This document shows, piece after piece, positions 6,507 through 9,772 of a stretch of DNA of 36,801 nucleotides. How positions within the stretch are numbered: position 1 is the first letter of the stretch; each line of letters starts with the position of its first letter. The notes under the pieces are model-generated. The model worked only from the letters and a program-made list of their open reading frames with translations, did not search any database and was not told where the DNA came from. Source of the DNA: Kofleriaceae bacterium (GTDB lineage Bacteria; Myxococcota_A; Polyangia; Haliangiales; Haliangiaceae). The stretch is taken from NCBI GenBank assembly GCA_018062915.1, contig JAGORH010000017.1, forward strand, positions 64,108 to 100,908, written 5' to 3'. A program made the position numbers and the translations under genes.

Positions 6507-8591
6507 ATGTCCTTCGCCCTGCGCTCCGACCTCATCCCTGGGACCGAGGAACTCATCGCCGGCACCGCGGCCCGCGCCTCGACCGCGCGGCTCGCCCCGA
6601 CGTCGCGGCCGGCCGCCGCCCTCCTCGGACTCCACGCGCGCGACGCCGCGGTCGCTCCGCCGGGGGCGCGCGAGCGCAGCGACGATCCCTTCGGCCTGCA
6701 CCTCTTGTCCGGCGACGAGGTCGGCGACGGCGAGGTCGAGGGCGAGGCCGAGGCCGAGGAGCCCGGAGCGCAGGCGCTCGACGCAGGGGAGGACCAGGCC
6801 GGGGACGACGAGGTCGGCGACGGCGAGGTCGAGGCCGAGGATGGCGGTGAGGCTCCCGAGGCTGCCGAGGAGGAGGAGGTCGGCGACGGCGAGGTCGAGG
6901 CGCCCCAGGAGGAGGACGACGACGAGGTCGGCGACGGCACCGAGGGCGGCGGCACGGTCGCCGCGAGCCCCGTGGCGTCGGGCGATGGGCTCAGCGGCTC
7001 GGTCGGCCGCGGTGGCGCCAACGCGCCCGCCGACGTCGAGCGGGTCCAAGCGCGCCTGGCCGACCTCGGTCTCGATCCGGGCCCGATCGATCGCCGGGTT
7101 GGGCCTCGAACCCTGGCCGCGATCGCGCAGGCCCAGCGCGCGATCGGCTTCGCCCGCCCCGATGAGCTGATCGAGCCGGGGAAGCGTACCGCGCGGGCGC
7201 TGTTTGACCTCGACGGGCTGAAGGGCGTCGTCACGGTGCGCGGCAGCGACGAGCCGTCCACGCCGACCTCGACCACGCCGACCTCGACCACGCCGACCTC
7301 GACCACGCCGACCTCGACCACGCCGACCTCGACCGGCGCGGGTGGCTACCGCGATCTCGCGGTCGACGACTTCCTCGACGAGCGCAAGGGCGATCAGTCC
7401 CTCGCGGCGATCATCATCGGCAACGCCGAGGGCAACCGCACGACCAGCGGCGGCTTCCGCGGCTCCTACCGCGGGCACTACGACCCGGGCAACGGCAAGT
7501 GGAACGTCGGCTCGTTCTCGTACCAGACCAAGCAAGGCCTGACGCCCGCGGCCGCCGATCGCGCGCAGATCAAGGCCCTGCGCGGGCAAGTCCCGGCCTA
7601 CGTCGCCGCGTGCAAGCGGGCCAAGCTCAACCCGGACAATGCGCTGATCCTCACCAACTACTTCGACCTCTACAACCAGTCGCCCAAGGGGGCCGGCCGC
7701 TACCTCGCGCAGCTCGACTACTTGACCGGCGCCGGTGTCAGCGTGGCGTCGATCATCGAGCTGCGGGTCCGGTGCTACTTCGACATGGCGACCGGGACGC
7801 GCTGGCCGGGGGCCGCCACCGGCTTCGTCACCATGGCGAAGAAGAAGCATGGGCGGGCGCCGACGAACGCCGAGGTGATCGCGGTCGCGCGCGCCGACCA
7901 GCGGCGGCGGGTCGAGGCGATGCTGGGGGCGATGAACGCCCAGGGGCTGCGCGGCGCCGGCACCACGCCCGGCGCGACGGTCCCGACCAAGGGGCCGTCG
8001 CCGACCACCACGCCGACCACCAAGTCGACGCCGACGCCGACGCCGACGCCGACGCGGCGCGAGGCTGCGACCACCCAGCGGCCCGACGCCAAGGGCATGT
8101 ATCAGGTCGGGGGCTATCCCAGCTCGCGGCCGGCCGGCACCCGCCGGGCCCAGTACACCGGCGCGCTCACCTCGGCCTCGATCCCGGGGCTGCCGATCGA
8201 GCGCGGGGTCAAGCTGGCGCCGACGATGATCCCGGCCCTCGAGGCGATCGGTCGGCACGGCGGGCAGCGCGGCATGTACGTGACCTCGGGCGTGCGCACC
8301 GACGCCGAGCAAGCGGCGATCATCGTGCGCAAGGCCGGTGGCCTGGTCGGCGGCGATCTGTGGAAGGCCTACGAGCGCTGCCGCGCCAAGGGCCAGATCG
8401 TCGCGTGGGTCGGCAACAGCCCGCACCGTCCCGGCAAGGCCTTCGATATCGGCGGCGCGCGCGGCGGGGTGACGGTGGCGGCCCGCCAGGCCGCGGTCGA
8501 GCGCGCCAAGCGCGCCGCGCCGGGCGCCGGCATCGGCTCGCTGATCCCCGAGTCCGCCAACAACTGCCTGCACGTGAACGTCGATGCGTGA
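6507..8591 (+). CDS. Multi-domain peptidoglycan hydrolase with four modules and NO N-terminal signal peptide: acidic repeat region, PG-binding domain (PG_binding_1), GH46/lysozyme-like (chitosanase-fold) domain, and peptidase M15 (LAS-family D,D-/L,D-carboxypeptidase)
   Basis: The true start is ATG at 6507 (MSFALRSD...; the ORF-track frame stays open from 5427 but that part overlaps the FKBP gene). (1) Four or five EVGDGEVE acidic repeats. (2) VERVQARLADLGLDPGPIDRRVGPRTLAAIAQAQRAIGFARPDELIEPGKRTARAL matches PG_binding_1. (3) The middle domain IIGNAEGNRTTSGGFRGSYRGHYDPGNGKWNVGSFSY resembles the GH46 catalytic Glu...Asp region (AENSS...DIGDGRGYTGG). (4) The C-terminal MYVTSGVRTDAEQ...SPHRPGKAFDIGG...NNCLHVNVD carries the SxHxxGxAxD plus distal His zinc motif of M15/VanY-type peptidases. 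Two Pro/Thr linkers. Confidence 0.75.
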   Translation: MSFALRSDLIPGTEELIAGTAARASTARLAPTSRPAAALLGLHARDAAVAPPGARERSDDPFGLHLLSGDEVGDGEVEGEAEAEEPGAQALDAGEDQAGDDEVGDGEVEAEDGGEAPEAAEEEEVGDGEVEAPQEEDDDEVGDGTEGGGTVAASPVASGDGLSGSVGRGGANAPADVERVQARLADLGLDPGPIDRRVGPRTLAAIAQAQRAIGFARPDELIEPGKRTARALFDLDGLKGVVTVRGSDEPSTPTSTTPTSTTPTSTTPTSTTPTSTGAGGYRDLAVDDFLDERKGDQSLAAIIIGNAEGNRTTSGGFRGSYRGHYDPGNGKWNVGSFSYQTKQGLTPAAADRAQIKALRGQVPAYVAACKRAKLNPDNALILTNYFDLYNQSPKGAGRYLAQLDYLTGAGVSVASIIELRVRCYFDMATGTRWPGAATGFVTMAKKKHGRAPTNAEVIAVARADQRRRVEAMLGAMNAQGLRGAGTTPGATVPTKGPSPTTTPTTKSTPTPTPTPTRREAATTQRPDAKGMYQVGGYPSSRPAGTRRAQYTGALTSASIPGLPIERGVKLAPTMIPALEAIGRHGGQRGMYVTSGVRTDAEQAAIIVRKAGGLVGGDLWKAYERCRAKGQIVAWVGNSPHRPGKAFDIGGARGGVTVAARQAAVERAKRAAPGAGIGSLIPESANNCLHVNVDA
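7258..7335 (+). repeat. Five perfect tandem copies of a 15-bp unit (CGCCGACCTCGACCA) encoding the (STPTS/TTPTS)5 linker inside the hydrolase gene
   Basis: Read directly: acgccgacctcgacc x5 with 100% identity. A related 24-27-bp unit (GACGAGGTCGGCGACGGCGAGGTCGAGG) recurs 3-4 times between ~6713 and 6935, encoding the acidic EVGDGEVE repeats. Confidence 0.85.
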
Positions 8592-9216
8592 GCCCAACCA
8601 GGCCGCGCGGGTCGAGGTCCCCGCCGCGATCGTCGTCGTGCCGGCCGATCGCGCCGGCCGCTTTCCTCGCCACGAGGCCTACGCGGCGCCCGGCTGGCTG
8701 GAGCGCGAGCCGCGCGAGGATGACGCCGTGCTCGACGGCGACGCGCCGACCTTGGCCCAGCTCCTGGCCGCCCTCGAGCTCGGCCTCATCGATCAGCCGC
8801 GCACCGCCGAGCGGGTCGCCGGCTTCGTCACGCCCCTCGACGCCGCCGCGTTGGCCGCCACGACCGGGGTCGGCTCGTGGGAGATCCTGGTGACCCCGGG
8901 CGGACCGCTGACCGCCTCGCCCTACGCCTACCCGGCGGTGATCCGGCGCGCGGGAGGGGCGGCGCCGGTGCCGCGCCTGGTGCTCCGGGCGTCGGTGGTG
9001 CCGCGGACCGGTCGCGGTCCGACGTGGCCCGCGGCGCGCCTGGTCCGCGGCGGCGTCACCACCGCGCTCGCCTGGGTCCTCGACGTCGGGCAGGTGGTCC
9101 GATGTCACGGCGAGGACGGCGGCTGGGCCTGGGTCGCCACCGACGACGGCGATCATCCGTGCGGCTGGGTGCCGGCCGATCTCCTGGCGCCGTTGGAGCA
9201 AGCCCGTGACGCCTGA
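8584..9216 (+). CDS. Hypothetical protein with C-terminal bacterial SH3 (SH3b) domain, translationally coupled to the peptidoglycan hydrolase
   Basis: Its ATG at 8584 overlaps the hydrolase stop (ATGCGTGA). The C-terminal AWVLDVGQVVRCHGEDGGWAWVATDDGDHPCGWVPADLL is a classic SH3b signature (W..V.......W..V...DG..GWV....L). No signal peptide. High GC3. Confidence 0.55.
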   Translation: MREPNQAARVEVPAAIVVVPADRAGRFPRHEAYAAPGWLEREPREDDAVLDGDAPTLAQLLAALELGLIDQPRTAERVAGFVTPLDAAALAATTGVGSWEILVTPGGPLTASPYAYPAVIRRAGGAAPVPRLVLRASVVPRTGRGPTWPAARLVRGGVTTALAWVLDVGQVVRCHGEDGGWAWVATDDGDHPCGWVPADLLAPLEQARDA

Positions 9217-9772
9217 CCTCCCGTCGTCGCCCGAGGTCGCGCCCCTCGTCGTGCCGGCGTCGCTGGCCGAGGCGCTGGTCGAGCTCGGGCGGGCGGCCGC
9301 CGCCAAGCTCGTGGTCCGCGACGACGCCGAGGGGTTCGCGCGGGTGCCGGCCGAGCAGCGCGCCACCCTGACGGCGCGAGCCGACGGGCTGGCCGATCAC
9401 CTGGCCGCGGTGTGCGAGGCGTGGCCGGCGCTGGCCGCCGACGATCCGCGGCTCGGCGAGCTCCGCGGCCAGGAGCTGCTGCTCCTCGGGCTGGCCCTCG
9501 GGCCGGAGCTGGATCGTGCGGTGGCGCGGACGGTGCGGCGCGCGCTGGGCGACGAGCCGCTGACCGTCGCTGGGCTGGTCGATCTCGCCGGCGAGGACCT
9601 GGCGTCGCGGCTCGCCCTGGCCGAGCTGCTGACCGCAGAGGCGCCGCTGGTAGCGCGCGGGCTCGTCGAGCTCGACGACCCTCGGGCCTCGGCCCGGGTC
9701 GCGGTCGCGCCCTGGCTGGTGGTCCAGGTCCGGCGGGCCGTCGTCGAACCGGCACGCGCCATGGCAGACTGA
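9206..9772 (+). CDS. Hypothetical all-alpha (Ala/Leu-rich) protein, translationally coupled to the SH3b gene
   Basis: Its GTG start overlaps the upstream gene by 11 nt. High-GC3 codon usage. No recognisable motif. It ends 24 nt before the Ser/Thr kinase gene. Confidence 0.45.
   Translation: MTPDLPSSPEVAPLVVPASLAEALVELGRAAAAKLVVRDDAEGFARVPAEQRATLTARADGLADHLAAVCEAWPALAADDPRLGELRGQELLLLGLALGPELDRAVARTVRRALGDEPLTVAGLVDLAGEDLASRLALAELLTAEAPLVARGLVELDDPRASARVAVAPWLVVQVRRAVVEPARAMAD

Follow-up and report, generated by a model that had tools for sequence, protein, structure and literature searches.

A predicted murein hydrolase without a Sec signal, encoded in an overlapping three-gene cassette of a Kofleriaceae bacterium

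Gene layout of the cassette

The 36.8-kb window analyzed here, a stretch of 36,801 nucleotides from a Kofleriaceae contig, carries a cassette of three overlapping genes, which we call A, B and C, and which may encode a bacteriolytic effector together with two proteins that handle it. All positions refer to the window and to its forward (+) strand unless another contig or strand is named. Gene A (6507..8591) specifies 694 amino acids (aa) arranged as an acidic tail, a PG_binding_1 domain, a lysozyme-like domain and a LAS/M15 peptidase domain. Gene B (8584..9216) encodes 210 aa and gene C (9206..9772), which starts with GTG, 188 aa; both products are without a signal peptide. A and B overlap in ATGCGTGA at 8584-8591, and B and C overlap by 11 nt, the GTG of C at 9206 preceding the stop codon of B at 9214-9216.

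An earlier reading of this DNA from its letters and open reading frames only (hereafter the sequence-only reading) had described the three genes as a translationally coupled chain. The overlaps on which this description rested are confirmed, and both are kept in the orthologous locus of a Kofleriaceae metagenome-assembled genome (MAG). There, B and C (56% and 58% identical to their orthologues, respectively) are co-conserved with A in the same overlapping arrangement, with different flanking genes. Scans of species-representative genomes, of metagenome contigs (scanned twice) and of viral contigs (scanned twice) returned only this MAG as a further source of the cassette, and a tblastn search of plasmids with C found nothing.

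The window has ~74% GC, and GC content by codon position picks out the true frames; at the third position (GC3) it marks the open reading frame (ORF) of gene A as coding. The start of A is called at the same position by JGI in 99%-identical metagenome contigs. Likewise, the same three gene calls for A, B and C are made in JGI contigs 97-99% identical to the window; the one difference between these contigs and the window is how often the units of the (TPTST)n and TP linkers are repeated.

Domains and export signals of gene A

The N-terminal tail of A (~165 aa; 6507..7001) is acidic and of low complexity, and its sequence suggests that it is disordered. An acidic N-terminus with EVGDGEVE repeats had been claimed previously, and we indeed find a net charge of -38 across the first 165 aa and four (D/E)EVGDG motifs, starting at 6714, 6807, 6873 and 6921. 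The orthologue has four as well, and further elements common to both tails are an M(S/T)F start, AARAST, AALLGL and DDPFxLHL, the last being DDPFGLHL in A (6681-6704). Even a more distant relative, P0017, keeps an MSF start and DDPFAVHV, such that a DDPF-x-x-H motif is common to it and A.

Signal peptides were called by a crude hydrophobicity screen combined with reading of the sequence. By this procedure, A has neither a Sec-like hydrophobic segment nor a twin arginine. Two ways in which a signal could have been overlooked were rejected. The in-frame upstream starts, GTG 6477 and TTG 6489, contribute no more than VVSPLQCPSG, which is no signal; both fall inside the promoter element described below, and the TTG is overlapped by its -12 part, TTGCA (6489-6493). 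The AALLGL segment, in turn, lies within the protein in both orthologues when ATG 9911 of contig L001 is taken as the Kofleriaceae start. It should also be noted that the deposited start of this orthologue (P0001, R3B06_15180) appears to be 30 codons too short (L001 9911-10000); the in-frame ATG 9911 restores its conserved MTF...AARAST N-terminus as well as the promoter spacing.

The PG_binding_1 domain (aa 175-214; 7029..7148) matches Pfam PF01471 at 28.4 bits against a cut-off of 23 and is preceded by a conserved SVGRGGANAPADV motif; the corresponding score for P0001 is 32.5 bits. It is followed by a middle domain (aa 277-481; 7335..7949) of a family for which Pfam, NCBIfam and PHROGs hold no model. 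The middle domain of A has no match in these three databases, and PADLOC also returned nothing. A homologue search with full-length A gave 3 hits only and was swamped by low-complexity words, and a word-index search with the domain alone missed true relatives. The family was instead found by an exhaustive profile search, which yielded 920 cluster representatives with E<=1e-3, of which 717 reach E<=1e-10.

Among 91 members of this family, E308 (7428-7430) and D326 (7482-7484) are near-invariant. An AlphaFold model of the middle domain built with these 91 sequences has a pLDDT (predicted local distance difference test) of 96.4; in it, E308 closes helix 23-32 at the C-terminal end, and D326 lies 18 residues on. 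The predicted structure thus combines a lysozyme-like fold with an invariant catalytic-type Glu that ends an N-terminal helix, and we read the modeled domain as a new family within the lysozyme-like superfamily. The sequence-only reading had called it GH46/lysozyme-like. The lysozyme-like, glycosidase-type part of this assignment stands. GH46 as its family was abandoned: A does not match Glyco_hydro_46 in Pfam, even with hits up to E 1 admitted, nor does NCBIfam or a PDB sequence search give a match, and in fold other lysozyme-like families are at least as near as GH46.

No Pfam model covers the middle domain in any of 114 members, in which it is fused most often to LysM (30), PG_binding_1 (24), PG_binding_3 (14) and C39-like Peptidase_C39_2 (10) domains; further partners are M23 (6) and M74 (4), as well as CHAP, VanY and YkuD. 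Apart from the recurring C39 domain, these partners are modules of cell-wall proteins. It is also present in a tape-measure-type giant phage protein and in two phage records, one of a Microcoleus phage and one a marine phage LysM protein.

The C-terminal domain of A (aa 546-694; 8142..8588) has the Hedgehog/DD-peptidase fold and carries a zinc triad, H-x6-D plus a C-terminal His, formed by H640 (8424-8426), D647 (8445-8447) and H689 (8571-8573), together with a conserved Arg, R597 (8295-8297). When A is aligned with Pfam-positive VanY domains, R597, S638, H640, D647 and H689 are invariant. Given the fold and the zinc ligands, we assign the domain to the LAS/M15 zinc peptidases on the basis of its predicted structure, though it falls below the VanY cut-off, and its activity is a prediction. 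A PDB sequence search with this domain gave nothing useful. Hence, the earlier claim that A joins two types of wall-cutting activity and a PG-binding domain, with no Sec or Tat signal, is supported: one domain is predicted to be of the glycan-cleaving type and the other of the stem-peptide-cleaving type.

The domains are connected by repetitive linkers. A perfect 15-nt tandem repeat of 5.1 copies (7258..7334) encodes the (TPTST)n linker within gene A, and a GCCGAC hexamer repeat at 7994-8055 forms a second one. In the 99%-identical contigs, the TPTST repeat is longer by two units and the TP run is extended as well; linker length is therefore variable within the population. In one metagenome contig of the same organism (L006, 1784-3701), gene A looks broken, with its N-terminal motifs in two frames and an ORF call of only 294 aa; a frameshift, a pseudogene or an assembly error are possible.

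Relatives of gene A

In P0001, the tail, the PG-binding domain and an M15 domain 81% identical to that of A are all retained. Its middle domain differs from that of A, giving a weak SLT hit and showing ES and GLIQF motifs. This swap of the middle domain for an SLT-like one, with the rest kept, argues that the job of the module is glycan cleavage. P0017 consists of the tail, PG_binding_1, the same middle domain as A and a bona fide VanY domain, and in P0039 the modules are permuted, running from the middle domain through PG-binding to M15. The view that the module set of A is atypical must therefore be given up, the three relatives providing PG-binding with the same middle domain and VanY (P0017), middle domain with PG-binding and M15 (P0039), and PG-binding with SLT and M15 (P0001). 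The same holds for the absence of an export signal, which had also been considered atypical. The crude hydrophobicity screen finds a Sec-type N-terminus in only ~22 of 135 family representatives, each of them a distant member. Since nearly all close members are without a signal peptide, a missing signal is the norm in the family.

The closest relatives, P0002 (LysM, middle domain, M23) and P0003 (LysM, middle domain, L,D-transpeptidase (LDT)-like), each precede a gene whose small product bears a clear Sec signal, the arrangement that one would expect of a non-Sec effector paired with a periplasmic immunity protein. In a further locus, L017 (10001-15677), a protein with PG-binding and middle domains, probably frameshifted, continues into an HNH-type nuclease C-terminus, and the genes that follow it are SMI1/SUKH, an AHH toxin and Imm11, which constitutes a polymorphic-toxin setting. 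Judged by these gene arrangements, the middle-domain family is also used in polymorphic nuclease toxins, and the contexts of P0002, P0003 and L017 together place the family in inter-bacterial conflict.

The Sec-signal small proteins themselves, at L010 11724-12341 (downstream of the LysM, middle-domain, LDT-like protein) and at L018 3254-3718 (downstream of the LysM, middle-domain, M23 protein), have no recorded family hit and are, by position and sequence, candidate new periplasmic immunity proteins.

Genes B and C

Gene B had been said to end in an SH3b domain. No profile exceeds its cut-off (SH3_2, 16.1 bits against 21.8, E 0.009; SH3_16, 15.1 against 25.8, E 0.021), Pfam gives no SH3_3 hit, and the best PDB SH3 match has an E of 0.86. 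What remains of the claim is a weakly SH3-like C-terminus (aa 164-205; 9073-9198), in which these sub-threshold SH3 matches fall, and a conserved WAW...GWVP pattern in B that reads as SH3-like; the N-terminal 160 aa of B are covered by no match. An hhalign comparison of B with Afp15 was not significant.

Gene C, previously described simply as a helical protein, can be identified as a protein of the PF22977 family, a winged-helix domain (WHD) variant. The match covers aa 86-161 (9461-9688) at 30.6 bits against a cut-off of 27, and the same precomputed hit is found in near-identical relatives of C on metagenome contigs. Searches of NCBIfam, PHROGs and PADLOC with C returned nothing, and one of PDB sequences nothing useful.

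PF22977 is of interest for its presence in Afp15, the AAA+ ATPase of the extracellular contractile injection system (eCIS) of Serratia pADAP, in which it spans aa 24-207 (72 bits, E 7e-20). This region is the counterpart of the N-domain of Pvc15, which has been delimited as aa 1-205. Cargo bearing disordered N-terminal signals of 50-70 aa is recognized and loaded only with the help of Pvc15 (PMC11495950, PMC9054023), the N-domain of which has been described as resembling DNA-binding proteins (PMC11495950). The 188 aa of C give no AAA hit corresponding to the AAA+ domains D1 and D2; hence, C is not a member of the Afp15/Pvc15 family of loading ATPases.

Promoter region and genomic surroundings

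The 130-nt region upstream of A contains two 17-nt palindromes of the form GTCGCC-N5-GGCGAC, GTCGCCTGGCGGGCGAC (6390-6406) and GTCGCCTGGCAGGCGAC (6423-6439), which lie 33 nt apart and are candidate operators or upstream activator sites of an enhancer-binding protein (EBP). They are followed by a sigma-54-type -24/-12 element, TGGTCTCGCCGTTGCA (6478..6493; GG-N10-GC), in which the C of the GC stands 15 nt before ATG 6507. This element is the sole match to TGG-N8-TTGCW in the window, where 0.28 are expected and at least one match occurs in 24 of 100 shuffles. The same block recurs in the Kofleriaceae locus (L001 9796-9897): the palindromes there are GTCGCCTGCCAGGCGAC and ATCGCCTCGGAGGCGAC, the -24/-12 element is the near-consensus TGGCAAGGCCGTTGCA, and its GC likewise stands 15 nt ahead of the ATG. 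Because the block is kept despite a different upstream gene, the control region can be regarded as a part of the cassette. From its sequence, this region predicts that expression of the cassette is sigma-54-dependent, activator-dependent and nearly leaderless. Simple scans for sigma-70 promoters and terminators over 5700-15200 found nothing.

A Ser/Thr kinase and an FHA-sigma54 activator had been noted directly downstream, and both are present, at 9797-12976 and ~13011-14333. The kinase gene (9797..12976) begins 24 nt after C, and its product, a candidate sensor, has a predicted transmembrane segment after the kinase domain. Its C-terminal region of ~690 aa gives a single sub-threshold WD40-repeat hit, and the sequence suggests a receptor-type sensor with a possible beta-propeller. 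The activator gene (13011..14333, start approximate) combines FHA, a Sigma54_activat AAA+ domain and a weak Fis-type helix-turn-helix (HTH_8), and is a candidate activator of the promoter upstream of A. In the window genome, this FHA-EBP and the kinase are the evident candidate regulators of the cassette. The link of the kinase to the cassette is seen in the window genome only.

Upstream of A lie genes for a biotin synthase, a small lipoprotein-like product and an FKBP-type isomerase. The lipoprotein gene (5270-5719, - strand) was considered as a source of immunity and rejected, as no counterpart is annotated beside the Kofleriaceae cassette. Downstream of the activator, and co-directional with it and the kinase, is an MbnP-like gene followed by one for a di-haem MauG/CCP-like peroxidase (14851-17168), an MbnP/MbnH-type pair. 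Further on, 22787-28537 encodes a 1916-aa protein with SpvB, TcdB_toxin_midN, FG-GAP and RHS repeats, resembling a TcB/TcC-like cocoon toxin, and an Hsp70-like gene and a gene for a 679-aa protein without a family hit adjoin it divergently (19410-22838, - strand). A check for a type VI secretion system (T6SS), a contractile-injection machine or a Tc complex, which the sequence-only reading had called for, thus found no such machine in the window; the sole Tc-like gene is this Rhs/TcB-TcC-like one, and there is no TcA-like gene in the window.

Interpretation and alternatives

From the domain folds, the catalytic-type residues, the conservation of cassette and promoter and the absent signal peptides, we infer that A acts as an antibacterial effector independent of Sec, degrading murein with two activities, and that B and C are its handling factors, and we give this reading a probability of about one half. 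The PG_binding_1 domain would dock A on murein, the lysozyme-like domain, with putative catalytic E308 and helper D326, would cut the glycan strand, and the VanY/VanXY-like LAS zinc peptidase (H640, D647, H689; R597) would cut stem peptides or D-Ala termini. Transcription would start from the sigma-54 promoter, activated via the two upstream palindromes and, in the window genome, probably by the FHA-EBP three genes downstream, under control of the membrane Ser/Thr kinase. B and C are expected to remain in the cytoplasm and would not be classical periplasmic immunity proteins. They would most likely bind and handle A before export, via its acidic tail and/or its M15 domain, as chaperones or as adaptors to a non-Sec delivery machine, and they possibly keep the VanXY-like domain off cytoplasmic D-Ala-D-Ala precursors. 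Given that B and C have no Sec signal and that the partners of the relatives of A have one, such handling or adaptor roles are the more likely and classical periplasmic immunity is unlikely.

Several observations weigh against this reading. The M15 domain scores below the Pfam VanY cut-off of 25 in both orthologues (A, 13.1 bits; P0001, 16.0 bits), and C687-x-H689 replaces the usual ExxH, HxH or DxxH general-base motif; the two together mean that the peptidase activity of A is not assured. The C-x-H is also found in P0001 and P0039, and the alignment places a conserved Glu, E682, 7 residues upstream. B has no informative homologue in Pfam, NCBIfam, PHROGs, PADLOC or a PDB sequence search. The PF22977 match of C spans only profile positions 107-186 of 221 and is slightly over the cut-off, and hhalign of C against Afp15 was not significant; because of this, and because C has no AAA domain, the link between C and Afp15 holds at the family level only. 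The cassette is known from two lineages, so the evidence for co-evolution is thin. No T6SS, type III secretion system, type IV secretion system or contractile-injection genes occur in the window, and neither secretion nor injection genes are seen within 10 kb on either side of the orthologue. With the -12 element standing 15 nt ahead of the ATG, the transcript would be unusual in having almost no leader. Finally, there is no sigma-54 activator within 10 kb of the Kofleriaceae cassette, and the kinase/EBP link may thus be specific to the window genome.

The first alternative is that B and/or C are cognate immunity proteins, neutralizing A in the manner of an antitoxin. They lie directly downstream of A, overlapping and co-conserved with it, and the family of A behaves like polymorphic toxins, with variable C-terminal modules and immunity-type genes downstream. 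Moreover, D-Ala-D-Ala precursors could come under attack from a VanXY-like domain that folds in the cytoplasm, in which case a cytoplasmic inhibitor would make sense. However, neither B nor C has a signal peptide or a lipobox, so that they could not protect murein against A delivered by a sibling cell, and the equivalent partners of P0002 and P0003 carry Sec signals. C is kept although the glycosidase module is swapped, from which it follows that C is not specific to this module. Furthermore, neither B nor C matches immunity families (Imm and SUKH in Pfam) or PADLOC models, and on the short contig of P0039, whose M15 domain belongs to the same subfamily, no B-like gene follows. We therefore consider immunity unlikely. 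Of the earlier proposal that the locus is an effector plus cognate cassette, the conserved overlapping cassette and the conflict contexts of the family hold up, and the immunity role of B and C does not.

Another possibility is that A is an endogenous, regulated autolysin or wall-remodeling enzyme, serving, for example, developmental lysis, sporulation or remodeling of the septum, with B and C as regulators and C binding DNA at the palindromes. Housekeeping autolysins usually carry Sec or Tat signals or lipoboxes, and A has no Sec or Tat signal. The conflict-type contexts of the family, the great rarity of the cassette, its differing neighborhoods and the lack of a holin-like gene in it also speak against this role. 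In its favor are the adjacency of a kinase and an FHA-EBP to a cassette with a sigma-54 promoter, the fact that the palindromes stay with the cassette even in the Kofleriaceae locus, where no nearby EBP gene was found, and the winged-helix-type domain of C, given the likeness of the Pvc15 N-domain to DNA-binding proteins (PMC11495950). On balance, we regard the autolysin as rather improbable.

A more far-reaching version of the effector reading, which we put forward as a speculation with odds well against it, is that A-B-C form a self-contained module of cargo and loader, with a bacteriolytic payload, which in predatory Myxococcota would serve a machine of the contractile-injection type or another one independent of Sec. 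The acidic EVGDG/DDPF tail of A would then mark the cargo for packaging or export; C, as a stand-alone counterpart of the Pvc15/Afp15 N-domain, would recognize this cargo, working with B; and the kinase, FHA-EBP and sigma-54 would switch on a murein-degrading payload meant for bacterial prey rather than eukaryotic cells. The tail is low-complexity, acidic and conserved; no link to known signal-peptide groups was found. Also opposed to the proposal are the thinness of the WHD link and the absence of machine genes nearby, as neither the window nor the 10 kb on either side of the orthologue contains genes for a sheath, tube or baseplate.

Lastly, that the cassette is left over from the lysis or tail-lysin module of a phage or prophage, as the middle domain in the Microcoleus phage, the marine phage LysM protein and the tape-measure-type giant protein might suggest, is very improbable, given that no recognizable phage genes occur in the window or the orthologous locus, that only the PG-binding part has a PHROG hit, that the viral contigs hold no relatives of B or C, and that GC content and GC3 match those of the surrounding genes.

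Returning to A as a Sec-independent effector handled by B and C, its interest is threefold. The lysozyme-like family, which numbers at least 920 sequence clusters and is not modeled in Pfam, NCBIfam or PHROGs, is swappable in signal-less cell-wall effectors, polymorphic toxins and phage tail proteins, and now has a confident model and candidate catalytic residues at the ready. The compact three-gene cassette, with its own sigma-54 control region, offers a way into the question of how myxobacteria handle and export lytic effectors that have no signal peptide. In addition, C is a possible free-standing relative of the N-domain of eCIS loaders.

Comparison with known systems

Among effector-immunity systems, A resembles the Tge and Tae effectors of T6SS and the lysozyme-like domain of VgrG3 in being a wall hydrolase without a Sec signal. 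Its family is likewise modular, with swappable lytic domains, and the genes of P0002 and P0003 are followed by those of small proteins with signal peptides. In contrast, no T6SS, PAAR, VgrG or known adaptor domain is found near A, and B and C appear cytoplasmic rather than periplasmic, such that no exported immunity protein adjoins A. A long acidic EVGDG-repeat tail is not known as a feature of T6SS effectors.

The likeness to eCIS loading by Pvc15 and Afp15 lies in the membership of C in the Pfam family that covers the Afp15 N-domain and in the long, low-complexity N-terminal extension of A, which is conserved in its orthologues. Lineage Ib of the eCIS includes the myxobacterial genera Sorangium, Minicystis and Stigmatella (PMC11495950). 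Unlike the loaders, C has no AAA domains, and no CIS structural genes are seen nearby. The tail of A is far longer and more acidic than the signals of Photorhabdus virulence cassette (PVC) cargo, with no motif shown to be common to them, and the characterized PVC payloads target eukaryotic cells, not murein (PMC11495950).

With the lysozyme-like superfamily (GH23 lytic transglycosylases, as in MltE and Slt70; GH108-like, as in SagA; GH24 phage lysozymes; and GH46 chitosanases), the middle domain of A has the overall fold in common, including an invariant Glu that ends the N-terminal helix and is followed by a beta-hairpin region. The second acidic residue follows 18 positions after the Glu, a spacing that is also that of Glu22 and Asp40 in GH46. 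Nevertheless, the domain has no sequence-profile match to GH23, GH108-like, GH24 or GH46 proteins.

Finally, the C-terminal domain of A shares with the VanY/VanXY D,D-carboxypeptidases and dipeptidases and other LAS enzymes (M15, M74 and Hedgehog-N) the SxHxxGxAxD motif and the C-terminal His that complete the zinc triad, as well as the Arg of the SG(Y/V)R(S/T) motif. It differs from VanY in scoring under the Pfam cut-off and in carrying C-x-H in place of ExxH or HxH, and from VanY/VanXY in being joined to glycosidase-type and PG-binding domains. The M15 domain of A and those of P0001 and P0039 form a separate subfamily.

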